This document shows, in pieces, positions 329 to 14,900 of a stretch of 16,070 nucleotides of DNA. The stretch's first letter is position 1, and every line of letters begins with the position of its first letter. The stretch lies in assembly GCA_965224245.1 (NCBI GenBank), contig CBDCYW010000012.1:1-16070 (forward strand), read 5' to 3'. This stretch comes from Candidatus Eiseniibacteriota bacterium. Lineage in GTDB: Bacteria > Eisenbacteria > RBG-16-71-46 > CAZAMP01. Under the pieces are notes generated by a model, which was not told the DNA's origin, did not search any database, and saw only the letters and a list, made by a program, of their open reading frames with translations. The position numbers and the translations under genes are program-made.

Positions 329-871
329 ATGCTGCAGGCAATCTACAAGGCACTCTCGGATATCTCACTCCTCCAGTGGGTCATCGTGACCGTGATCTGG
401 ATCGTCTTGGCGGTCGCGGTCGCGGCGTCCTTCATGCGCTGGACCTTCCGACGGCACTGGCGTCTCTACAAGAATCTCAAGCGTCCCGTCATCGTCCTCG
501 AACCGCAACATGCATCGGGGGCGCCCGTACCCGACGGCTCGCTCGCCCCCGTGATCGAGATCATGCGGAAGAGCGGCCTTCTCAACGTCAAGAATCAACC
601 CTCGGATCATCGGCACTTCGACCCGTCTGGGAAGCACTGCGTCGTGGTTCTCGGCTACAGGCCCAGCATGACCGGGCTGGAAGACATTCTCACCCGGATT
701 AAGTCGCACCATGTTCCTCTGATCGTCTACACGTACGGGAGCAACAAAATCACCGGCGAAGACAAGGCCAAGCTCGACGGCTACCCGTTCACGCTCTACG
801 CAAACTTCCCGCTGACGCTCCTCAACCACATTTTCGCAACCGTAGCGAGCTACCCCTATGACCCGAAGTGA
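329..871 (+). CDS. Single-pass membrane protein with alpha/beta (Rossmann-like, NARF-like) cytoplasmic domain; putative CBASS effector/sensor
   Basis: Hydrophobic helix LLQWVIVTVIWIVLAVAVAASF followed by a basic stretch, then beta-strands PVIVL, CVVVLGY and PLIVYTYG alternating with helices; stop overlaps the cyclase start by 14 nt. Confidence 0.7.
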   Translation: MLQAIYKALSDISLLQWVIVTVIWIVLAVAVAASFMRWTFRRHWRLYKNLKRPVIVLEPQHASGAPVPDGSLAPVIEIMRKSGLLNVKNQPSDHRHFDPSGKHCVVVLGYRPSMTGLEDILTRIKSHHVPLIVYTYGSNKITGEDKAKLDGYPFTLYANFPLTLLNHIFATVASYPYDPK

Positions 872-2273
872 CCTCGAGCAGTTAGTCGTCGGCTTCATCC
901 GCGACAACCTGTCGCCGACGGAGGGGGAGCGGTCGGAGATCTCGACGCGCTACTTGCAGCTCCAGGATTTCCTCGCGGGGCGCACCTTCCAGAACGGATC
1001 GTACGCCCGGTTCACGTCGACGACCCCGGTGAATGACCTCGACGTCATCTACGTGCTCCCGCAAGAGGTCGTCAAGTCGATCACCGTCGCCCGGGCGATC
1101 GACACTTCGAAGCTGGACATCCATCGGATCATCGAGTCCCTCGCGGGCGAGCTGAGAGTGCACTACGGCCGGTCGGCGACGATCAAGCTCCAGCCCCACT
1201 CCGCGGGCATCTACTTCGGCCGCGAGGACGAGTTCTCCATCGATGTCGTACCAGCAGTTCCGACCGACGACGGGATGTTCTGGGTGCCCGAAATCGCGCA
1301 CCTCTCCGTTGCGAAGCGCCGAGGACTCTACCGCACACATGCCGCCCATCCGCCGTCTCCGAACTGGATCAAGTCGGATCCCAAGGGCTACATCGCCCAA
1401 GCCAAGGACACCGATGAGCGGTCGGACGGTCGCTTCCGCAAAGCGGCCAAGGCCATGAAGCGGTGGCGATGGGGATGCAAGGCCGGAGACGACTCGTTCC
1501 GCCTCAAGTCCTTCCACCTGGAGCAGGCGGTCACCGGGCTCTTCGGAGCAACCCCAGCGACGTCATGTTGCGATGCCATCGGCAGAACGCTCGAAGGCGT
1601 CCCGGACCTCATCGCCAGACCGCAGATTCCCGACAGAGCCGACCGGACACGATTCATCGATGAGTACGTGTGCACCCTCACCGCGGAGGAGCGGAAGACG
1701 ATCCAAACCGCCCATCGGCTCGCGATGTCCCACTGGGCGTCCGTCTTGGAGGCTGGCACATCAACGGAGGCACGACGCGCCCTCGCCACGTTCTTCTGCA
1801 TGAATCCTGTGTTCCCCGTTCGAGCGGTGAGCGGAGCGAGCGCGTCCCCAGTCCCGCGGGGTCTCGTCGCTACGAACGGTAGAGACCCTGGAGAGCAGTT
1901 CCTCCAGGACAACGGCGTTTCGACCGACCTTCGTCATGGAGTGCGGATCAATGCCCGGGTGACCCAGAACGGATTCCGTCCCTTCAACCTGCGGGGCAGC
2001 ACGAAGCCCCTTCTCAAGCAGCGCCACCTCGAGTTCTTCATCGACTCATGTGATGTTCCGGAGCCCTATGATGTCCGATGGAAGGTGAAGAACACGGGAC
2101 CGGAGGCGGCGGCGAGGGGGGACCTGCGTGGGCAGATCTACGCCGACGCAGGTCGGCACCGGCACACCGAGAACACCAAGTACCGGGGCAACCACTACGT
2201 GGAGTGCTACATCATCAAGGATGGCGTTTGCGTCGCTGCTGACCACATCGATGTTGTGATCGGTCGTTCCTGA
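858..2273 (+). CDS. cGAS/DncV-like nucleotidyltransferase (CD-NTase/SMODS) fused to a C-terminal AGS-C domain
   Basis: Pol-beta NTase motifs GSYARFT..PVNDLDV, SIDVVPA, WIKSDP and LKSFHLE; C-terminus YDVRWKVKNTGPEA...LRGQI...E.T.YRGNHYVECYIIKDG matches the AGS-C pattern. Confidence 0.92.
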   Translation: MTRSDLEQLVVGFIRDNLSPTEGERSEISTRYLQLQDFLAGRTFQNGSYARFTSTTPVNDLDVIYVLPQEVVKSITVARAIDTSKLDIHRIIESLAGELRVHYGRSATIKLQPHSAGIYFGREDEFSIDVVPAVPTDDGMFWVPEIAHLSVAKRRGLYRTHAAHPPSPNWIKSDPKGYIAQAKDTDERSDGRFRKAAKAMKRWRWGCKAGDDSFRLKSFHLEQAVTGLFGATPATSCCDAIGRTLEGVPDLIARPQIPDRADRTRFIDEYVCTLTAEERKTIQTAHRLAMSHWASVLEAGTSTEARRALATFFCMNPVFPVRAVSGASASPVPRGLVATNGRDPGEQFLQDNGVSTDLRHGVRINARVTQNGFRPFNLRGSTKPLLKQRHLEFFIDSCDVPEPYDVRWKVKNTGPEAAARGDLRGQIYADAGRHRHTENTKYRGNHYVECYIIKDGVCVAADHIDVVIGRS

Positions 2274-2427
2274 CCCACTCAGGTGGAGGTCAGGTTCTCA
2301 GAAGCCAGGTCAACCACGCAGCAGCCAGTCACTTAGGTGATTTCTGGACCTGACGCGTCAACTACAGTGCTCGCAACGCCGATACCTGCGATAGAACGGT
2401 GTGGGCGGGTCTCGCGAGGTGGTGTTG

Positions 2428-3351
2428 ATGCTCGACTACTCAGAAGTCGATGGAACGAGATTCGAGCAGCTCGTACGAGAACTTCTTCTTGTTCTTGGGC
2501 TGGCACCAAGATGGTCCGGGGAGGGCCCTGACCAGGGTCGCGATATCATCGCGACCGAGTCTTTCTCGGGCCCGGTTTCCAAGACGAAGCGAGTGTGGCT
2601 GGTTCAGTGCAAGAACACGGCGTCGGCGATTGGACGACCCGATCTAGCGTCGGTGGTCACGGATTGTCAGCAGATCGGTGCTGATGGCTATCTGCTTGTC
2701 TGCTCGAAAAACCCGACGTCGAGTGCCGTGCAGCTCCTCGAGGAGTTGGACAGGAACGGCAGTCCCGTTACTCGGTACTGGGACGGTGTCGAACTCGAGA
2801 AGCGCCTGAACGAGCCACGCGCTTTCGGGATCGCCCAGATGTTCTTTCCTAAGTCGCTGGGCGGAACCCCGTGGCGGGTATACAACGCTGGCTCCCCATC
2901 CATATGGGCCGCCCACTACCGTGGCCACTTCATCTACTTGTGTTGTCGAGATGGCGCAACGTTTCCCTGCCTGAGCTGGGTGGAGCCGCTTGTCGCTCGC
3001 TTCGAGAAACTGACGGCGGGGGAAGATGAGTACCTTCGGCTCCGTGCGGTGTACTTCGACGACAAGCACTGTCAGCTGTATGTGTTCAGCGACTACCTGC
3101 ATCCGGCTAACTCAGTCCCTACTATCTCTCCTTTGCAGTTCAGCGAGGTCGTCGGAGATGGCTATTGCCCGGATACGTGCCTGCAAACGTTGTGGGAAGT
3201 GCGGAGGGTTACGAGCTACCCGTCCGGCGATCACTTTCACGTTGACCATCACGTGTTCTACGAGCCATACATCCGAAACTTTCGGGAAGGCACGTTTCGC
3301 GACATGCCGCTAAGCACCTACGTCTTTCATGGCGGTGAGTGGTCGGTGTGA
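2428..3351 (+). CDS. Mrr-like (PD-(D/E)xK, Mrr_cat) restriction endonuclease domain fused to an unknown C-terminal domain
   Basis: DGTRFEQLVRELL...GPDQGRDIIA...WLVQCKN and later YWDGVELE; ATG at 2428 preceded by GAGGTGG (ORF track starts at GTG 2401). Confidence 0.85.
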   Translation: MLDYSEVDGTRFEQLVRELLLVLGLAPRWSGEGPDQGRDIIATESFSGPVSKTKRVWLVQCKNTASAIGRPDLASVVTDCQQIGADGYLLVCSKNPTSSAVQLLEELDRNGSPVTRYWDGVELEKRLNEPRAFGIAQMFFPKSLGGTPWRVYNAGSPSIWAAHYRGHFIYLCCRDGATFPCLSWVEPLVARFEKLTAGEDEYLRLRAVYFDDKHCQLYVFSDYLHPANSVPTISPLQFSEVVGDGYCPDTCLQTLWEVRRVTSYPSGDHFHVDHHVFYEPYIRNFREGTFRDMPLSTYVFHGGEWSV

Positions 3352-3389
3352 CGGCTCCGGCAACTTCCGTCCTACCATCCGCGTTTGAC

Positions 3390-3567
3390 CTACTCGGCTA
3401 TCCAGGGCTTATGACACGCGTGCCGCGCCTTCCCCCGGGCTTGCTGCCGGCGTTTCATCTGCCGGATGATGCTCTGTGGGCGGTTTTCCAGGATGTAATT
3501 CGGCCATTGGATCAGGAGAGGCCTGTCTGTAAAAAGGTGCGTATTGTGTCTACTACGGTGAGCCACC
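3390..3567 (-). pseudogene. Orphan second copy of the serine recombinase 3' end (about 58 codons, one 1-bp indel)
   Basis: Reads WLTVVDTIRT(F/fs)TDRPLLIQWPNYILENRPQSIIRQMKRR...; the intact LSR tail reads WLAVVDTIRTLFTENPQLIQWPKYIQEQSLDVSIRQLRRR. Confidence 0.85.
3536..3567. repeat. Direct repeat copy 1 (att-like core) GGTGCGTATTGTGTCTACTACGGtGAGCCACC
   Basis: 31/32 identical to 5564-5595; a second shared block GGCCATTGGATCAG lies at 3502-3515 and 5529-5542. Confidence 0.95.
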
Positions 3568-3610
3568 GGGAATCGAATGCCGCCGAGGGCAATGATGGAC
3601 AACACGCATG

Positions 3611-3641
3611 AACACCGCCAGGATTGGCGGCGTTTTTGTTT
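3611..3641 (+). terminator. Putative intrinsic terminator
   Basis: Stem CCGCCA-GGAT-TGGCGG (extendable with AAC/GTT) followed by TTTTTGTTT. Confidence 0.6.
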
Positions 3642-3784
3642 GCGGTGAGTGATGGTCCAGTATCAACAGGTCGGGAGCTGTCCACAGGGCATCCGGGAGG
3701 TTCGAACCCCGAACCTGGACGAAACCCAATGGGTGTGCTTGGCTTAAGGTGTCGACCTTACTTTGAGCTGAAGAAATGTAGTCT

Positions 3785-5365
3785 ATGTCAAAGAAGAGAA
3801 GGAAAAAGCGTCAGAAGGCGCGCCAGGGTGGGGGGTACAGCGCGCTCAGGAGACATCATAAGAAGGGGTCTCGACTTTACTCGCCCGGCGATGAACTCAG
3901 GTTCACCGATGTTCAGTGGATGCGCGACATGGTACCCGAGCACCTGTGGATCGGCGCGCTAGCTATGTTCTACGGACCGAGGAAGGCCGAGTGGCCAAAC
4001 ATCTATGGCGAGATGATGGACGCACTCGACGAGGTTGTCGGGGACCAGAAACTCCCGCCACTTGGAATGGTGTCGGACTTCTCCCTCGTTCCGGCGGACA
4101 CGCGTGAACGGTTCCGAAAGCAACATGAGGCCCTGATTCAAAAGGCCGTGCTTCTTCCGTTTGGGAGAGTGGCCGCGTTCTATCCTGACTGCCCCATGGG
4201 ATGGTTGATCGAAGAGGACTGGCTCGAGGCCGGAGGCCCGCTAGATCCCGATATGGAGCTCGGTCAGCTATCGACGCTTCTTGCGCTCCTGTTCGACGGC
4301 AAGGAGCTGACGACCGGGCACGTGCGAGCCGTTCCGCTAAACCGATTGTTCAAGCACAACAAGCTGTTTATCACGAGGGGCGTCTCGGACGATGTGGTCA
4401 AGCTCCTCCCGAAGTATCCCGCCGAGTGCAATGAAGAAGAGCTCTACAGAGTTCAGCAGTGGGCGCGAACTGCGCTTAACGTGATGTACACGATCGACGG
4501 CCGTTACGTAGATCGTGCCTGGCCGAAGTACTTCTGGAGGCAGAACTACAACCTCGCACCATGTGGCCCGCGACGAGTGCAGCCGTCCGGATCCGAAGGC
4601 GTGGATCGGGATGATGTCAGGTCCGTCATGATCCAGAACGCTAGATGTGTCAAAGGGTACCTTGACAGTCTTGTGAGTGTTCCGCCGGTGGACCTCTACG
4701 ATCCACGACGAGATGAGGTTCTATTGGGTCTGTTTGCACGACTCACACGCTTGGTAGTGACACTGGCGCAGAACGAGTCATTGTGGGCTCGAGACATGGC
4801 TGGCATTCTGCTGCGGTGCATAGCCGACACGGCAATCACATTCGTCTACTTAGCGAAGGACGGAACAGACCAGGAGTTCGAAGACTTCTGTCAGTATAGC
4901 GAGGGCAAAGAGAAGCTGTTGATGCTTCACCTTCAGGACTCGTATCCTGACCGATTGTCTATCGATGGTCGCGATGTACAGGCAATCGGAGACGACTTAG
5001 GTGGCTTCCTCGCGGAGGTCATGCAAATCGAATTGGATAGCTGGACTAAGAAGTCCGCGCGGACCTTGGCTCAAAGAGCTGGCCTTGAGGAGTACTACAG
5101 GTTGGTTTATGACCCCACGAGTGCGGATCTTCACGGTTCGTGGATTAGCGTCCGTGAGTCGAATCTGACGTACTGCGAGACCCCGCTCCATCGGTACCAC
5201 AGGTTGCCTTCGTACTCTGATCCGCCCGTGTACGTGGGCTACCTGGGTGCTGCGATACGACTCTATCGGGAATGTCAACGAGTAGCCGTGGATGTCCTGA
5301 AATTCCCAGCCCCCAAAGAGCGCGTGCTGAGAATGCCTGGCGACGAGAGGGAGCACGAGGCCTAG
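3785..5365 (+). CDS. DUF5677-like (HEPN-related) protein, candidate defence factor
   Basis: 526-aa ORF; C-terminal half has A.ILLRCIADTAITFVYL ... LA.RAGLEEYYRLVYDPTSADLHGSW, typical of DUF5677-type helical domains; basic N-terminus. Confidence 0.75.
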   Translation: MSKKRRKKRQKARQGGGYSALRRHHKKGSRLYSPGDELRFTDVQWMRDMVPEHLWIGALAMFYGPRKAEWPNIYGEMMDALDEVVGDQKLPPLGMVSDFSLVPADTRERFRKQHEALIQKAVLLPFGRVAAFYPDCPMGWLIEEDWLEAGGPLDPDMELGQLSTLLALLFDGKELTTGHVRAVPLNRLFKHNKLFITRGVSDDVVKLLPKYPAECNEEELYRVQQWARTALNVMYTIDGRYVDRAWPKYFWRQNYNLAPCGPRRVQPSGSEGVDRDDVRSVMIQNARCVKGYLDSLVSVPPVDLYDPRRDEVLLGLFARLTRLVVTLAQNESLWARDMAGILLRCIADTAITFVYLAKDGTDQEFEDFCQYSEGKEKLLMLHLQDSYPDRLSIDGRDVQAIGDDLGGFLAEVMQIELDSWTKKSARTLAQRAGLEEYYRLVYDPTSADLHGSWISVRESNLTYCETPLHRYHRLPSYSDPPVYVGYLGAAIRLYRECQRVAVDVLKFPAPKERVLRMPGDEREHEA

Positions 5366-5422
5366 GCGTGGAGCGACCGCTCGTGGCAACCTCGTCCCAC
5401 TATCCCCGCTTCCAGTCCTCCG

Positions 5423-7060
5423 CTATCCTGAGGGTGACATCGACCGAGGCCGCTTCTTCCTCGCGGCTCGCTTCCGGCGCCTGAGTTGTCGGATGCTGAC
5501 ATCGAGGCTCTGTTCCTGGATGTACTTGGGCCATTGGATCAGTTGGGGGTTTTCGGTGAAAAGGGTGCGTATTGTGTCTACTACGGCGAGCCACCCCGGA
5601 ACGTGAGGCCCCTTCGCCATGAGCGAGAGGGGCTTTTTGGCTTCCATTCGCAGTGTCTTCTGAGACAGCACCGGGTTCGAACCGACTGCCACGAAGATCT
5701 CACGCTGGATCTGAGGATCCCCATGTTCGAACGCACTTACCGCTGACGTTAGTAGAGAAACACCGCGAGCCGAAGGTTCGAACCATTCGTCGCCCAGGTC
5801 CGATCGGCGGATCCGTTCGCGGGCTCGTGCGGCTGCCGCGACGAGCTCATCGCGCTTGGTGCGATACTCGTCATCGGAGACAAGGTCGCGAAGTCGTAGG
5901 TCAGTCAACCGATCGATCTGCTTTCGGGCGTCAACCTCCGCGCTCTCGATGCTCCGCCGATGGGCGGCGCGTGCGGCCTCACCGCTTGTGCGCTGGCCGA
6001 GTAGCGTCTTCATGACGTAGTCGGCGTCTTTCGGGTGAAGCGCAATCGTCCGAAGAAAGTCCAGCGCCTGCGCGTGGAGAGCCTCGGCTCGGATCGACGG
6101 CTCGCGGCAGACGTCCCGACCACGGCGCTTTGTGCAGTGGTAGTAGGTATAGCGCGTGCCATGGCGGTTCTGCTTGGTCTCTGCCGTGACGGAGAGGCCG
6201 CACGATCCGCACCGAATGAGACCTGTGAAAGGAAACACATGGTCGGGTCGCCGCGGGCGGCGGCGAGGACGGCCAAGCGCCTCCTGGACGGCTTCGAACT
6301 CCTCGTGGGTGACCATGAGTTCGTGAGCGCCGAGAAAGCGCTCCCCGCGCCGTTGGATGACCCCACAGTAGAAGGGATCGGCGAGCATCCGGTAGAACGA
6401 ACTAAGCGCTACGGGGCGGCCACCCTGGCGGCGTCGCTTGGGCGTGCGTAGGGAAAGGTCGGTGTTGGCCCACCGGAGCACCGCTGACGGCCGTTCGCCG
6501 GCAAGCACGCGTTCCCACATCTGGCGCACAAGGTGGAAGCGGTCAGGATCAGGCACGATCGTCTTGGTGGCTAGGTCGTTCAGATAGCCCAAAGGCGCCG
6601 GGCCGGGTAGCCAACCCTGTTCGAGCTTGGCCCGGTTGCCCCGCCGCACATTGTCCGAGAGATCGTCGACGTACTTCTTGGCCATGCCGAACTCGAGCTG
6701 CATCCAGAGCTTGTCGTCGGCCGCGTTGCGGTAGGTTCGGCCCGGCGTGGCGATCTCCTCGAGCTGCCCTTGGTCCAAAGCCCAGATGATGGCGCCCCCG
6801 TCGATGGGGTTTCGCGCCAATCGGTCGAGTTTCCAGCACAGCACGCCAGTCGCCTCGTGACGAGTAAGCGCTGCCATGAGCTGCTCGAAGACGGGCCGTC
6901 CGGGGCTCTTCGCCGAGCGAGCTTCCTGAAACACGCCGGCGACATCGATGTCGCGGGAGCGGGCAACCGTCTGGAGTTCGGAGATCTGCGAGTCGATGGA
7001 CAGCACCTGTCGATCTTCGGACTCGGATGACTTGCGAGCGTAGAGTAGGTGGCGAGGCAT
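5423..7060 (-). CDS. Large serine recombinase (resolvase catalytic domain, recombinase domain, zinc ribbon, coiled coil)
   Basis: YARKSSESEDRQVLSIDSQ (catalytic Ser), SAK.PGRP.F, WKLDRLARN, GPAPLGY, FTGLIRCGSCG...YYHC...C zinc ribbon. Confidence 0.97.
   Translation of the reverse strand: MPRHLLYARKSSESEDRQVLSIDSQISELQTVARSRDIDVAGVFQEARSAKSPGRPVFEQLMAALTRHEATGVLCWKLDRLARNPIDGGAIIWALDQGQLEEIATPGRTYRNAADDKLWMQLEFGMAKKYVDDLSDNVRRGNRAKLEQGWLPGPAPLGYLNDLATKTIVPDPDRFHLVRQMWERVLAGERPSAVLRWANTDLSLRTPKRRRQGGRPVALSSFYRMLADPFYCGVIQRRGERFLGAHELMVTHEEFEAVQEALGRPRRRPRRPDHVFPFTGLIRCGSCGLSVTAETKQNRHGTRYTYYHCTKRRGRDVCREPSIRAEALHAQALDFLRTIALHPKDADYVMKTLLGQRTSGEAARAAHRRSIESAEVDARKQIDRLTDLRLRDLVSDDEYRTKRDELVAAAARARERIRRSDLGDEWFEPSARGVSLLTSAVSAFEHGDPQIQREIFVAVGSNPVLSQKTLRMEAKKPLSLMAKGPHVPGWLAVVDTIRTLFTENPQLIQWPKYIQEQSLDVSIRQLRRRKRAARKKRPRSMSPSG
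5564..5595. repeat. Direct repeat copy 2 (att-like core), inside the LSR coding sequence
   Basis: GGTGCGTATTGTGTCTACTACGGcGAGCCACC encodes WLAVVDTIRT on the - strand; 2028 bp from copy 1. Confidence 0.95.
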
Positions 7061-7065
7061 GGGAG

Positions 7066-7074
7066 TGTGGATAA
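7066..7074 (-). promoter_or_regulatory. Consensus DnaA box TTATCCACA just upstream of the LSR start
   Basis: TGTGGATAA on the + strand, 5 nt from the ATG at 7060; single copy. Confidence 0.3.
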
Positions 7075-7113
7075 GTTATTCTGCATTCAGCGTATCGAGA
7101 ACGGAAGAAACAG

Positions 7114-7308
7114 TCAAACCGGAGGATGTTCGAACCCTCTATGCGTTCCGTCACGGCGGCGTCGCGCGTCGTAACGGGCCAAGCTCTCCCAGAGGCGTAC
7201 GAGCCGATGGAGCCCCTCGGACGCGTCCTTGTAGCTTAACCACTCGCCGGTAGCTCGAAGGTGGACGCGACGGAACTCCTCGATCCTCTGACGTGGTAGG
7301 GGCAGCAT
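7114..7308 (-). CDS. Small helical protein upstream of the LSR (possible directionality/accessory factor)
   Basis: 64 aa MLPLPRQRIEEFRRVHLRATGEWLSYKDASEGLHRLVRLW; I recall this 'I.EF..I.....G..LS..EA....L..L' pattern from small ORFs preceding LSRs; co-oriented with the LSR. Confidence 0.6.
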   Translation of the reverse strand: MLPLPRQRIEEFRRVHLRATGEWLSYKDASEGLHRLVRLWESLARYDARRRRDGTHRGFEHPPV

Positions 7309-7537
7309 TCTGTGATCATAGCTGCACGTCCCAGCGCCGCCAGGAGGACGACAGTGTCGCGTGCGGGCCAACCAGCCGGGTCACGATGCCTGGCTCTAGC
7401 CTGCTGGTTTCTCCTCGGGGTTTGCCGCCTGCGGCACACCTGTCCGACTTCCCAGCTCGCGTTTTCACCTGTACCGTAAGAGTGTGGACCGACGCTGTGA
7501 CGCCTGAGCGTCCTTCGGGCCACGAGGAGGACTGCCT

Positions 7538-9571: not shown

Positions 9572-9704
9572 TCCACCGAGCTCCCTACCGCCGTGATCGA
9601 CGGCCTCCGACTCACGCTTGCCCGTGGGCTGGATCGGGGTCCGTGTCGGCTTGCTGGCAAGGCAGCGGCACGCGACTTGGGGGAGCTCACCTTCTCTCTG
9701 CTAT

Positions 9705-10235
9705 ATGCCCACATCATGGCGTCCTCGACATAATCCGATCCTTCTCGCCCTCGATCCCGGCACCCGAAACACCGGTGTCGTGGTCTTCGACGGCGTGGAC
9801 ATCGCCGACTACCACGTGCGCACGTTTCGGCAGGCACGGGGCGCCACGCGCCTTCTCAAGGAAGTAACTGCCGCGATGCGGGAGCTTTTGGCCGAGATCG
9901 AGCCGGGCACGGTTGTGATCGAGCGCCCCTTCTTGGCTCCGACCAAGCGCTCGGCGCTCCTCAACGTCCTGGTTGACGAGCTTCGATCTCTGGTGTCGGT
10001 GGGCACGATCCGTCTCCGGGAGTACGGCCCGCGTGAAGTCAGAGAGGCACTTCTGGGCAACGCGCGCGCGACCAAGCGTGACGTTGCCCGTCACATCATC
10101 GAGCGCTACCCGGAGCTTCGGCATCGCTTTCATCCTGGGGACTTCTGGCGGGAGCGCTACTGGTCACACGTCTTCGACGCCGCTGCCCTTGGCCTGGTCG
10201 AGCTCGACCGCCGCCAACGGTACCGACGCCGGTGA
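9705..10235 (+). CDS. RuvC-like Holliday junction resolvase 2
   Basis: LLALDPGTRNTGVVV, VVIERPF, EYGPREVREALLGNARATKRDVA and FDAAALGL give the RNase H-fold D/E/D residues. Confidence 0.88.
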   Translation: MPTSWRPRHNPILLALDPGTRNTGVVVFDGVDIADYHVRTFRQARGATRLLKEVTAAMRELLAEIEPGTVVIERPFLAPTKRSALLNVLVDELRSLVSVGTIRLREYGPREVREALLGNARATKRDVARHIIERYPELRHRFHPGDFWRERYWSHVFDAAALGLVELDRRQRYRRR

Positions 10236-10288
10236 CTTGAACACACCGGAGGTCGTTCTTTCTCACCCAATCCAGAAGGAGAGCTGAC

Positions 10289-11018
10289 ATGTCAGCAAGC
10301 CTAGTCGTCCATGCTGGTGGCTGGCCGGCTGCACGGGAGGACCTTGAGTCCGTGCCCGTGCCCGAGCCGACCACCAGCTTACCATCCCGTCCCGTACGGC
10401 CGGTTCCTGGAGGAGATCGAGCTGCACGTGCCGCGGTTCGGGCTCACGGTCACCGATCGTCGGTTTGCGCTGGCGCGCGACAGCAATCAGATGTTCGGCG
10501 TCTTGACGTGCCGCAACGGCGGCCCCGACACCGACTACGCTCTGGCCATCGGCGTGCGGAACTCCTACGACCGCTCACTGTCCGTCGGACTCGTGGCCGG
10601 GGCTCGGGTGTTCTGCTGCGACAACCTTGCTTTTTCTGGCGAGGTCCAGGTGGCGCGCAAGCACACGGTTCACGTCTTTCGCGACTTGCCGGATTTGATC
10701 TATCGAATGCTGTCGCAGGTTGGGTCCATTCGCGATCGAACAAGCCACGAGATCGAGACCATGAAGGCGACCACGATTACAGATGAGAGGGCCCACCACC
10801 TGATGGTTGCAGCAGTCCGCCGGCGCGTAGTGCCCGCCTCCTGGCTGCCAAAAGTAATTCGGGCATGGGACACTCCGCAGCATGAGCAATTCGAACCGCG
10901 CACTGCTTGGTCTCTCTACAACGCCTTCACGGACGTCATGAAGTTGCGATGTGCACGCGCGCAGATGGAGGGCGGGCTTCGACTGAGCGGGGTCTTTCGG
11001 GAGCAGGTGGCGCGCTGA
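10289..11018 (+). CDS. DUF932 family protein of mobile elements (one frameshift near 10379)
   Basis: VPVPEPT.SYHPVPY...MFGVL...IGVRNSYDRSLSVGLVAGARVFCCDNLAFSG...RKHT...RTAWSLYNAFT; RBS AAGGAG. Confidence 0.85.
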
Positions 11019-11050: not shown

Positions 11051-11192
11051 TCTCGCAGAGTCGGAGTTGCTGACAGCAGTCCCCAACGCGGAAGGGCGCT
11101 CACGCTTCAGTGAGCGCTGCCACACCCTAGGGTGCACAGTGACTGGATCAGCCATGACGGCACATCTTTTCAAGAATGTGCCAGGTCCCCCT

Positions 11193-11265: not shown

Positions 11266-11851
11266 ATGGCAAAGCAGTATCAGCTCAAAGACAGCGAGTT
11301 CTATTTGAAACCGGCGGCCCTTGAGAAGGTCATCTATGCGGCGGACTCGTTTCGTGACCGCTGCATCCTCAAGACTCTGGCTCAGACCGGTATCCGCCGT
11401 TCCGAGCTTGCGAGTCTCGACATTCGTGACCTTGACCTCGAACGTCGCCGAGTGCGCGTCTGCGAAGGTAAGGGCGCCAAGGAGCGACTTGTCCCGATTA
11501 CCGGTGAATTAGGCTCGGATCTCTCTCACTTGATCGGGAGGTCGAGCCGCGGGCCCCCTGTTCCTCTCCCTTCGAGGTGGTGCGATCTCACCGCGTTCGG
11601 TCAATCGAATCGTCACCACTGCGGGCGAGCGCGCAGGCGTGGAGAATCCCAACCCAAAGTACGAAGGCCGACTTACTTGCCACCTCTTCCGGCATACCTT
11701 TGCCCGAAACTGGAAAGCAAAGGGTGGATCGATCGAGAGTCTCTCGAAGATTCTCGGTCACTCGTCGACGGCGACGACGGTTGACCTATACGGAACGGAA
11801 AGTATCGACGACGTCCAGGCCAATTACGACGCCATCATGCAAGAGCAATAG
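11266..11851 (+). CDS. Short tyrosine recombinase (catalytic domain only; one frameshift near 11555)
   Basis: RDRCILKTLAQTGIRRSEL, GKGAKER, HLFRHTFA and LGHSS...TVDLY give the complete R-K-H-R-H-Y set across two frames. Confidence 0.9.
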
Positions 11852-11926: not shown

Positions 11927-14900
11927 ATGAACGTTTTCGATACCCACAGGCAGGTTGTCGATGACTACTCGCGGTACATTCGCAGCTTCATCAACATAGC
12001 TGACCCAGAGATCGCGCGGGAGGTCGAACAGTCGCTCTCCGAAGGGCGTCTCTGGCCGCAGCCGCTCCTACAGTTCAATCCTGCCTATGAACAGGCCGGT
12101 ACGGTCGAAGAGATCGTCGCGTCAGGACAGCTGCATGAGCACATCCGTCACATCTTCAAGGGCTACACCCTTTACCGGCACCAGCTGGAGGCCATCCAGC
12201 TCGGAATGACGGGTGAGGATTTCGTCGTCACCTCGGGTACGGGATCCGGGAAGTCCCTCACCTACATCGGTTCGATCTTCCATCATCTCCTTCAGAACCC
12301 GAATTCGCCGGGAGTGGCCGCGATCGTCGTCTATCCGATGAATGCGCTCATCAACTCCCAAACGAACGAGTTTCGTGGCTACCAGCGAAACTTCGAGGGC
12401 GTCAGTGGTCGGGAGTTCCCGATGAGCTTCGCCCAGTACACGGGGCAGGAGGGCGAGGAAAGGCGTCAGAAGATGCGGGAGAATCCTCCGCAGATTCTCC
12501 TCACGAACTACATGATGCTTGAGCTCCTGCTCACGCGCTTTCAGGAGCGACGCATCCGCGACGCGAGTCTACAACAATCTGCAATTCCTCGTCTTCGACG
12601 AGCTGCACACCTACCGAGGCAGACAGGGCGCGGACGTCGCGATGCTGATTCGTCGCGTCCAAGCCCAATGCGAGCACAAGCTGACGTGTATCGGAACCTC
12701 GGCGACCATGGTGTCGGTCGGGAGCCTGGCATCGCAGCGAGAGGAAGTGGCCGCCGTCGCGACCACGATGTTTGGCCGACGGTTCAAGCCGGAGCAGATC
12801 ATCAATGAGACTCTCGCTCGGTCGCTTGGCTCGTCGGGAGCTTTGCCGAGCAAGACGGCGCTGTCCGACGCGATCAGTCGGGGCGTCGACGTCAGCGCGG
12901 GCGAAGTTGATCTCAAGTCACATCCAGTCGCGATCTGGCTGGAGAATCGCGTGGCGCTCGAGGAGCGCGAGGGGCAGATCGTTCGGCGCACGCCGCAGCG
13001 GATTGGAGAGGTGATCTCGATGCTGGCCGAGGATTCCGGCGCCTCGGAGCAAGACTGTCGTCGCAATCTGACGGACCTGCTCCTCTGGGTCAGCAAGGTC
13101 AATCAGAAGATCCAGGAGAGGGGATCGCGTTACACAATCCTTCCGTTCAAGCTCCACCAGTTCATTGCGCAGACGGGATCGGTGTACACGACGCTCGATC
13201 AGGGCGACGAGCGCTTCATCACCCTGGAGCCAGGCATCTACAAGGAAGACGACGAAGACAAGCGGCCGATCTTCCCCAATGTGTTCAGCCGTGCCACAGG
13301 ACACCCATTCATTTGTGTGTCGCGGATCGGAGACCGTCTCGAGCCCAGGGAGTTCCGGGACGGGCTCGGATGAGGCGGGCGAGGCGACGGATGGCTACCT
13401 GATCCTTGGAGAGGAAGTCTGGGATCCGGTCGAGGATCTCGACTACCTGCCGGAGGCCTGGATTAGGACGCGAAAGCACGATCGGGTGCCCGATTCCAAG
13501 AAGGCCGACCGCTTCCCCCAGAGGCTCCACTTCGACGAGTTCGGGCGCTGCTCGGAAACGGAGCCGATGAAGTACTGGGGCTGGTTCATGAAGGCCCCGC
13601 TCCTGTTCGACCGACGGGTGGAGTCTTCTTCGAGACCAGGACGAACGAGGGTACAAAGCTCACAAAGCTAGGAAGTGAAGGCCGCAGCACGTCCACGACG
13701 ATCGCGGCGTTCACCATCCTGAACCAGCTGCATGATGCGGGCTTCCACCCGCGCGATCAGAAACTCTTGAGCTTCACGGACAACCGACAGGACGCAGCGC
13801 TTCAAGCCGTCACTTCAACGACTTCGTCCAGGTCATTCAGCTTCGAGCAGGCATTCGGAAGGCGCTGGGGGCCAGCCCTGACAACACGCTGGAGTTTGCT
13901 GGAATCGGTAAGGCCATCTTCGATGCACTAGAGCTTCCGTTCTCTGACTTCGCAAACCGTGAGGACACCGATCTGGCGACGGTGAAGCGCAGGTATGAAG
14001 AGACGTTCCAGAAGTACCTCCTGTATCGCGCTCTGGCTGACTTGCGCCGCAGTTGGCGCATTGTACTTCCGAATCTGGAACAGTGCGGGCTTCTCCAGAT
14101 CGACTACCTCGATCTGAGGGAGATTGCGGCAGAAGGCGGCTTCTGGGCCGATGTGCCCATCCTGGGCAACATGACCCCGGCGAATCGACAGGAACTCCTG
14201 TCGACGATTCTTGACTTCTTCCGGCTGGAGTTCGCGCTTCACAGCGAGAACTTTCTGACGCCGACAAGGCTCAAGGAAAACGAGAAGCACTTCAGGGAGC
14301 AGTTGAGGCCCCCTTGGACGTTGGACCGAAACGAGGGCCTGAATGAGCCCTACGTCATCCGTCTCGATCCACTCCACCGGACGGCGAAGCTCTACTCGAA
14401 AATGCATGGGCCCGGTCAGTTCTCTCGGGAAGTACATCAAGCACATAGCCAAGCGTGAAGGCCTGGATCCGGAAGTCCTGAAAGAAAATCGCTATCGGGA
14501 GTTTATCCTCCAGCTGATGAGTAAGCTCACGGAGGCGGACTACCTGCAGGAGCAGACTGCTCGGAGCGCTCAGAACGACGAGTTCCCGTCTACCGGCTCC
14601 GCATCGAGAAGTTGGTCTGGAAGCTGGGGGGACGGTCAAACCGTCAAACCGGATGTGATCAAACGACGCTCGTACATGGATCAGACGCCGAAGCCGAACG
14701 AGTTCTTCCGCGATCTCTACAGCCGGGATTTTGCGCGAGGCAAGCGCCTGCGCGCAGAGGATCACACCGGCCAATTGGGTGTCGATGATCGTCTGGACCG
14801 GGAAGATCGTTTCCGGGCCGAGTGGTACGTGGAGGGAAGCAACAGCGAGCTGGATGAGAAAAAGATCCACAGCGAGTCGATCAGTGCCCTGTCTGCTCAC

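Follow-up and report, generated by a model that had tools for sequence, protein, structure and literature searches.

The target of the staphylococcal cassette chromosome elements (SCC, SCCmec) is the 3′ end of the host gene rlmH (orfX), the reading frame of which is preserved. In Hossain et al. (2024, PMC11470126) these elements, which depend on the large serine recombinases (LSRs) CcrAB and CcrC, are described as tandem cassettes, many of them recombinase-less, with anti-phage defence genes. The ssrA islands of Dehalococcoides are a second case: a Ccr-like LSR, DsiB, targets the T-loop region of the transfer-messenger RNA (tmRNA), the islands stand in tandem with 20-bp 3′-end repeats, and 15 of them are without an integration module and have been proposed to be cis-mobilizable elements (McMurdie et al. 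2011, PMC3146451). We have analysed an LSR gene of a Candidatus Eiseniibacteriota bacterium (assembly GCA_965224245.1, contig CBDCYW010000012.1) whose own 3′ end appears to play the part of such a target. The window, as we call the stretch of DNA analysed, is the entire 16,070-base contig of a 6.9-Mb genome. A 32-nt core inside the LSR gene is repeated downstream of it, and comparison with related loci leads us to propose, with a probability that we put at about 0.55, that recombinase-less cassettes have been inserted site-specifically at the attachment (att) site within the LSR gene itself.

A core repeated inside the recombinase gene and behind it

The recombinase of the window, P0001, has the Pfam domains Resolvase (PF00239, residues 6–149), Recombinase (PF07508, 173–262) and Zn_ribbon_recom (PF13408, 277–336), in the order that marks a large serine recombinase. 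Residues Y7, R9, K10 and S11, of which the last three make up the N-terminal motif, are invariant among 19 homologues, and from what is known of the family we take S11 to be the nucleophile. The two cores lie in direct orientation, 2028 bp apart, and agree at 31 of 32 bases; on the minus strand the copy within the LSR gene encodes WLAVVDTIRT and the left-hand copy WLTVVDTIRT. The longest exact run that they share is only 23 nt, and for this reason an artefact of k-mer assembly is unlikely. To the left of the core the likeness persists for 116 nt at 71% identity (89 of 146 bases in an ungapped count), and in BLAST the homology on this side extends over ~227 nt, beyond both stop codons and up to the stops of the genes that converge on the two tails. 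To the right, 28 of 100 bases are identical, which is the random level. If the 71% identity of the tail applied to the core as well, at least 31 matches in 32 would be expected with P ~2.4e-4. An earlier note, made by a model from the letters alone, had described a direct repeat with an abrupt right end and a diverged coding tail on the left, and the alignment confirms this. A search of the whole genome found the core at these two places only, both in the window.

The content of the segment between the cores is also as the note described it, namely a hairpin, one DUF5677 gene and the current tail of the LSR; neither a second recombinase nor a remnant of the LSR body was found between them. The note was equally correct on the convergent gene ends, at 3351 and 3390 for the outer pair and at 5365 and 5423 for the inner one. 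The current and the displaced tail are ~61–71% identical in nucleotides and 48% in amino acids, and the junction is at the TGG of the conserved Trp codon, with two shared bases preceding it. Right behind the old core there is a 1-nt deletion, and the homologous tail sequence (LFTDRPLLIQWPNYI...) sits in another frame than its core.

Extra tails in related loci

Relatives of the LSR were collected as 24 loci from species-representative genomes, 80 from metagenomes and 11 from viral contigs (three family members), and another 12 were added from the phylum to which the window belongs. After removal of the exact duplicates L058 and L082 there remain 94 loci with a complete LSR (loci carry L numbers throughout). 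The LSR has its own tail of the W....D.RT type in 52 of these and ends on a convergent tRNA gene in 25; eight endings are tRNA-like but were left uncalled by aragorn, five are short or broken and four are of other kinds. Counting the window, 42 tail-type loci have 2 kb or more of downstream sequence; in 12 of them one or two additional copies of the tail follow in direct orientation 0.7–6.3 kb downstream, and one (L030) has an inverted copy. The sample from the phylum taken separately, a subset of the 42, gives 4 of 11 loci with an extra direct tail. Where the records with extra tails are named, they are annotated as Ignavibacteria, Gemmatimonadaceae, Parcubacteria or uncultured bacteria, and four are from the window's phylum. 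In L161, which is part of a complete genome of 3.6 Mb in one contig, three tails follow each other in a row ~1.0 kb apart, with open frames of similar length. The earlier note had expected that homologues would show additional tails and that defence cassettes could stack, and both expectations agree with these arrays. The outcome that it had named as counting against it, homologous loci that never show additional tails or varying cargo, did not occur, and its interpretation is supported in part, on the side of structure.

The 12 loci that have an extra tail in direct orientation contain no remnant of the LSR body downstream of the LSR, and most of the extra tails retain open frames of similar length. 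The ratio of nonsynonymous to synonymous substitution (dN/dS) between paired tails is 0.02–0.52, with dS 0.14–0.94 in nine of ten pairs (for L154 dS could not be estimated); the sequences are short and the values indicative only. Because the differences are mostly synonymous, the tails seem to have diverged while being translated, in different lineages. The values thus give an indication that purifying selection acted while the copies diverged, and that these are no recent local duplicates.

Some candidates for additional copies were rejected. A third copy in the genome of L020 is just a 70-nt motif that otherwise follows the tails, without a core, a third tail in L041 is partial and likewise lacks the core, and protein similarity upstream of the Trp in extra copies proved to be spurious extension only. 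Within the 206 genomes of the phylum the closest LSR is 53% identical to that of the window, and the family holds one other genome only; these relatives include no backbone nearly identical to that of the window, be it with the segment or lacking it.

The junction at the tryptophan codon

The anatomy seen in the window recurs with exact junctions. In 11 of 12 aligned pairs of copies, from ten loci (the window, L020, L023, L027, L041, L045, L154, L155, L161 with two pairs, and the inverted pair of L030), 23–30 of the 30 bases that begin with TGG agree, but only 3–13 of the 30 bases before it, and just 0–4 identical bases abut the TGG. The remaining pair, in L013, is older or more decayed, with 19 of 30 bases from TGG identical; L038 and L160 have a slightly different tail start. 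The earlier note had placed the att site within the WLxVVDTIRT codons, and the junction is indeed at the W or at most 4 bases before it in these 11 pairs.

The inverted repeat of L030 (1431–1524 and 3588–3681) is 94 nt long, 100% identical and starts exactly at TGG. It encloses a gene for an Ltp-type lipoprotein, and beyond it lies a second, intact LSR (3821–5299), the end of which overlaps a tRNA-Lys gene (5258–5333). The repeat may mark a segment that can be inverted, or else an att site held in reserve.

At many loci an inverted repeat, CCCTTC...GAAGGG or in another subgroup GCTCC...GGAGC, is found at −40 to −16 from TGG (5611–5635 in the window). It falls in coding sequence, where the protein motif is KPF..L..G, and, standing just upstream of the att core, may be a feature at the DNA level.

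Relatives that end in tRNA genes

In the 25 loci on tRNA genes the reading frame of the LSR enters a convergent gene for tRNA-Asn, -Gln, -His, -Arg, -Ser, -Glu, -Leu or -Trp. Fourteen of these genes encode the CCA end, and its antisense, TGG, is in frame and forms the same conserved Trp, which is where the overlap starts. The analogy with islands at tRNA ends drawn in the earlier note thus goes further than the note could tell. The junction repeat that marks tRNA-restoring islands, made of the 3′ part of a tRNA gene, is present in the 25 related loci and absent from the window. Two relatives with nearly identical LSR ends represent the two types: L104, with its own tail (...VRAH-WLRVVNDART), and L097, on tRNA-Asn (...VRAH-WLRGWDSNPRP), are identical at 44 of 45 bases before TGG, and the identity continues through TGGCTCCG before they diverge. 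If the geometry is the same throughout the family, as we assume, this divergence and the tail pairs confine the crossover to the 8 bases that begin with TGG. On the evidence of these alignments, the predicted att site of the LSR family is inside its own gene and starts at the conserved Trp codon.

For the Arg of the motif, 33 of 40 tails use CGA or AGA, whereas these two codons serve for 26% of the remaining arginines of the genes concerned (binomial p 8e-14, a value that is overstated since the loci are related). This codon gives rise to a T(C/A)GAAC motif, which is found at +24 in 20 of 40 tails by a strict pattern; the T-loop of the tRNA is at +19 in 14 of 14. That T(C/A)GAAC is the distal motif of the zinc ribbon domain (ZD) is assumed; on that assumption the offset equals the shift in serine integrases, where the distal ZD motif lies 5 bp further outward in attP than in attB (Rutherford et al., PMC3783163). 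From the offset and the bias in the Arg codon we interpret the tails as arms of the attP type which mimic the end of a tRNA, the conserved protein motif then being largely a DNA signal. The tail of the LSR is probably dispensable for catalysis, because the tRNA-type relatives end in arbitrary residues read from the antisense of a tRNA.

In L078 a 5-kb element is anchored on tRNA-Gln (276–460, 5469–5567). At its far end, ~26 codons of an LSR body end are fused to an own-type tail (NLWDEVRVF...), making a complete attP-like site without a recombinase.

Cargo of the segments

The loci L020 and L045 are 89% identical across 5.8 kb comprising upstream genes and the LSR, as far as 75 nt past TGG, and are unrelated from there on. 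The first cargo is an AAA_13/PDC-S06 ATPase in L020 and an AbiEii protein with a protein of unknown type in L045; behind the second tails one locus has a SEC-C protein with a type III restriction system and the other a NACHT-like ATPase with PDC-S18. The cargo after the motif, the variability of which the earlier note had proposed to check, thus differs completely between two closely similar backbones. The second tails themselves are 84% identical over 190 nt and their homology begins 1 base before TGG, so the joint between outer arm and tail must be recombinant in at least one of the two loci.

A conserved motif of 44–70 nt follows each tail at these loci (L020, 7700–7745 and 10425–10470; L045, 8289–8332 and ~11075–11118) and occurs also at 49481–49550 of contig C2 of genome G001. 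Its opposite strand contains a perfect DnaA-box-like sequence, TTATCCACA. The last of these five copies lies 18 kb from the LSR and has no core.

Cargo in the segments and behind the last tail is defence-rich, with non-defence genes and unknowns among it, and 5 of the 12 first segments give a PADLOC match with E <1e-5. CBASS (cyclic oligonucleotide-based anti-phage signalling system) genes are found in the window and in L161, there with a Cap15-type effector and an E1/E2-like protein. AbiE occurs in L041 and L045, TIR and DUF2971-TPR/PDC-S31 in L013, PDC-S06 in L020, PIN-TPR-GreABC with a LexA-like repressor in L154, a type I restriction subunit in L155, DUF4062 in L160 and the Ltp-type lipoprotein in L030. 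Non-defence cargo is represented by AhpC, a disulfide reductase and CsoR, all in L155. In most arrays the cargo is convergent with the recombinase.

The sole other DUF5677 homologue in the 206 genomes of the phylum is likewise downstream of, and convergent with, an LSR of the same family (L157). At this locus (G136:C21:187–4794) four co-oriented genes, including the DUF5677 homologue (28% identity), converge on the LSR; a search for an extra tail beside this homologue found none. The arrays mark candidate defence genes, among them DUF5677/DitA, DUF2971-TPR, PIN-TPR-GreABC and several unknowns.

Parts of the window and its surroundings

The features of the window are collected in Table 1. The PADLOC match of the DUF5677 protein to DitA spans profile positions 4–446 of 486. 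The older cargo consists of a CD-NTase-type cyclase with an adjacent effector, the combination by which CBASS is recognised, and the Mrr_cat nuclease adjoins them. The post-tail stretch behind the current tail is still homologous to 3352–3389, as seen in the alignment and in the 227-nt BLAST pair. Within the 217 nt of the outer arm (X arm) there is a terminator-like hairpin with a T-run at 3615–3630 on the plus strand, with a fold z-score of −2.2; the hairpin by itself is not significant, 1.7 such sites being expected by chance in that stretch. The promoter of the cargo is presumably located in this arm.

Table 1 Features of the 16,070-base window around the large serine recombinase (LSR) gene
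Feature	Position	Strand	Basis or remark
LSR gene	5423–7060	−	Pfam domains; 545 residues
att core inside the LSR gene, links LSR body to current tail	5564–5595	−	begins at Trp codon 5591–5593 of WLAVVDTIRT
Current C-terminal tail of the LSR (LFTENPQLIQWPKYI... through stop codon)	5423–5563	−	homologous to 3390–3535; interpreted as having come with the cassette
Post-tail intergenic stretch	5366–5422		homology continues
Cargo: DUF5677 protein, 526 residues, convergent with LSR	3785–5365	+	PF18928, E 3e-19; PADLOC DitA, E 8e-25
Outer arm (X arm) of the segment	3568–3784		unrelated to LSR body flank, 28/100 bases
Second att core copy, links X arm to displaced tail	3536–3567	−	repeat alignment
Displaced older tail (LFTDRPLLIQWPNYILEN...)	3390–3535	−	translation, alignment, tblastn
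Older cargo, CBASS-like set	329–3351	+	Pfam and PADLOC
Transmembrane (TM) effector	329–871	+	PADLOC C3a59, E 9e-18
SMODS/AGS-C cyclase	858–2273	+	Pfam SMODS, AGS_C; PADLOC Cyclase, E 3e-80
Mrr_cat nuclease	2401–3351	+	Pfam; PADLOC PDC-M58A/PDC-S02
Small open reading frame, 85 residues, just upstream of LSR	7114–7371	−	candidate accessory or directionality factor

Ten other loci have weak homologues of the 85-residue open reading frame (E 2e-6 to 6e-3), which precede the LSR by ~60–350 nt, and neither Pfam nor PADLOC gives a match for it; its position makes it a candidate accessory or directionality factor. A check of the contig for circularity revealed neither overlapping ends nor a terminal inverted repeat. 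The window has no tRNA or Rfam match either, and the core, judged by eye, is not tRNA-end-like in its fold.

The source genome contains no other close LSR. Its ten distant LSR paralogues, 22–27% identical to P0001, are mostly on small contigs, which suggests many separate LSR-bearing elements. In the window itself, an open reading frame at 11266–11784 is a truncated tyrosine integrase covering only profile positions 12–86 of 172, and a DEAD-box helicase is split across two overlapping frames (11927–12808 and 12519–13373); together these suggest decay of the element backbone. RuvC-like and DUF932 genes accompany the LSR both in the window (9618–11018) and in L020. The element of L020 encodes, in addition, ParA, a complete tyrosine integrase, two proteins of the Replic_Relax type and coupling proteins similar to TraG/TrwB. 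The elements of the window and of L020 look like integrative mobilizable or conjugative elements, perhaps integrating by means of another enzyme.

Interpretation

If recombinase-less cassettes are inserted at the LSR's own att site, this site would occupy the last part of the gene from the conserved Trp codon on. In distant relatives the site at the LSR end would recombine with the 3′ end of a tRNA gene, and in the clade of the window it would have taken up small recombinase-less segments, each made of an att core, a replacement C-terminal tail, a short spacer, one or more convergent cargo genes and an outer arm. Site-specific insertion within the first few bases from TGG would keep the LSR open while pushing the former tail and its cargo outward, and repeated insertions would yield arrays. 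In the window the DUF5677/DitA segment (3568–5595) would have separated the LSR body from the older tail and its CBASS cargo on insertion. The simplest history for the order body, core-tail2-cargo2-arm, core-tail1-cargo1 would be entry of a small circle (arm, core-tail2-cargo2) into the site of the LSR. Insertion of a whole element is disfavoured because an LSR body would then be expected between the cores, and none is seen. On this reading the intermediate would be circular, the window LSR would be the enzyme, perhaps with the 85-residue protein, and the reaction would be reversible and possibly still active.

Several observations weigh against this proposal. No extra tail is present within the 2–8 kb fetched downstream in 29 of the 42 tail-type loci, the tail-type class was defined by a regular expression and a few of its members look misfiled, and the loci are mutually related, so that the counts and p-values overstate their independence. 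The right arms of the two sites in the window are of one type, attP-like. Canonical serine integrases act on attP with attB only, and reverse the reaction only with a directionality factor; since both right arms are of one type, strict pairing would forbid recombination between the two sites, and relaxed pairing would be needed, as in the LSRs Ccr and TnpX. The outer X arms have no clear common motif nor any likeness to the arms on the LSR side, and for want of such a motif they are at most putative half-sites; short palindromes stand beside TGG in some of them (L027, L045 and L041), with nothing consistent. In L020 and L045 the cargo that follows the conserved 44-nt post-tail motif is unrelated even where the units have one tail type in common, and for this reason some other exchange process must also act. 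The array of the window may be fixed, because the displaced tail is frameshifted. Decay of tandem elements does exist in the family, as L078 and the partial third tail of L041 show. Finally, neither a circle nor an empty site nor a polymorphism was seen; the public runs over 2500–7200 amount to three Logan contig sets at a depth of ~2, with no joints, and are uninformative on a circle or an empty site; a 229-nt contig from a marsh metagenome covers 5501–5729 with 7 differences and shows just a relative of the LSR end.

The same observations could also result from tandem accretion, in which whole LSR elements were stacked at the att site, as occurs at tRNA genes in the family, and later deleted down to tail and cargo, leaving static relics that are now fixed and had never been mobile as small units. 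The frameshift in the old tail of the window fits such a history, as do the partial third tail of L041 without a core, the far end of L078, where 62 nt from the end of an LSR body survive together with a tail, and L030, where the first LSR continues into a tail belonging to a second element, the LSR of which is located on tRNA-Lys. It requires, however, that the deletions stopped at TGG or within 4 bases of it in ten loci and removed every trace of the LSR body downstream in the 12 loci with direct extra tails; moreover, the segments span just 0.7–6.3 kb and most extra tails are still open and of similar length. We therefore regard accretion relics as rather unlikely. An explanation without any capture from outside, in which the extra tails are built-in spare att sites at which the LSR performs programmed deletion or inversion and so switches its tail or sheds or flips cargo, would suit the perfect inverted copy of L030 beginning at TGG and the extra tails that remain in frame. 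The divergence of the direct copies at synonymous sites (dS 0.14–0.94) nevertheless points to different lineages, the difference in cargo and outer arms between 89%-identical backbones requires import of DNA, and the arbitrary endings of the tRNA-type relatives make it unlikely that the identity of the tail matters much; spare sites of this kind seem improbable to us. Ordinary duplication, or a patch of homologous exchange between islands with the core kept merely by its protein motif, could draw on the family-wide conservation of W....D.RT and on 70–95%-identical tails as homology arms, but is very hard to reconcile with identity that stops 0–4 bases from the same codon in ten loci and is random beyond, with an Arg codon constrained at the DNA level (33 of 40 CGA or AGA against 26%), and with a position that in relatives is the proven junction of element and chromosome at tRNA ends.

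Insertion of recombinase-less cassettes at the LSR's own att site remains our preferred reading. It may be extended to the view that the 3′ codons of the LSR are a reusable docking site, evolved as a mimic of the tRNA acceptor and T-arm, and that the system is a serine-recombinase counterpart of the integron, in which cassettes with their own promoter, a defence gene and a spare tail would be captured, stacked and released, so that mobile elements in several phyla would trade immunity genes. This extension is tentative, and we give it slightly less than an even chance.

Comparison with known systems

In the literature outside subscription journals and the supplements of LSR catalogues of the Durrant type, our search met with no account of recombinase-less cassettes entering the 3′ end of an LSR gene that serves as its own target, nor with a paper on the present LSR family and its members at tRNA 3′ ends. 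An attP site within the integrase gene itself is known from the Myxococcus phage Mx8 (intP) and from Sulfolobus SSV1, where integration changes or splits the 3′ end of the gene. Those enzymes, unlike that of the window, are tyrosine recombinases and the whole virus integrates; we know of no arrays of recombinase-less units for integrases of this type. Tyrosine recombinases also stack the cargo of Tycheposons at tRNA ends.

Integrons employ the tyrosine recombinase IntI, folded single-stranded attC sites and co-oriented cassettes with a common promoter, Pc, and the arrays of chromosomal integrons are reportedly rich in defence genes (10.1101/2024.07.02.601686). Calling the array of the window integron-like, as the earlier note did, is justified as a functional analogy, in that one recombinase gene stands beside a growing array of promoter-proximal cassettes. 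The features that define an integron are absent: the window has a serine recombinase, double-stranded repeats in the recombinase's own coding region, and convergent cassettes that are apparently self-expressed. If the segments are mobile, they would provide a second way, besides integrons and SCC and mechanistically unrelated, for a single recombinase gene to gather a library of defence genes, and one that occurs in poorly studied phyla.

With cis-mobilizable elements the window shares a segment flanked by att sites (3568–5563) that lacks recombination genes of its own and lies beside an autonomous element. In the classical cases of such elements, and of the accretion of integrative and conjugative elements, the enzyme is a tyrosine integrase and the target a gene of the host, and their origin is generally attributed to the decay of complete elements. 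The LSR elements at tRNA ends (L036–L114) belong to the same family as P0001 (36–49% identity) and have the att site at TGG in the LSR gene and defence cargo by the tail. Their partner site is a tRNA end and the repeats enclose the whole element including the LSR, whereas the partner site of the window carries another tail and its segment has no LSR. The family supplies natural att pairs with tRNA and non-tRNA partners, which bears on how serine integrases distinguish site types and on their use in genome engineering. If the proposed insertion is correct, the coding 3′ end would be under two constraints, as an open reading frame and as an att site imitating a tRNA end.

The ssrA islands resemble our loci in an LSR acting at a tRNA-like T-loop and in tandem units of which some have no integration genes; they differ in targeting ssrA, in being larger and in replacing no enzyme tail. 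With SCC the proposed system has in common that an LSR would be the driving enzyme, and the window and 11 other loci share with it tandem recombinase-less cassettes bounded by direct repeats of the 3′ end of the target. There is no insertion into rlmH here; the target is the coding 3′ end of the LSR itself, and each unit has a replacement tail. What we describe is a variant of LSR-driven tandem accretion, the novelty of which is that the recombinase's own coding end is the target and that every unit brings a replacement tail.

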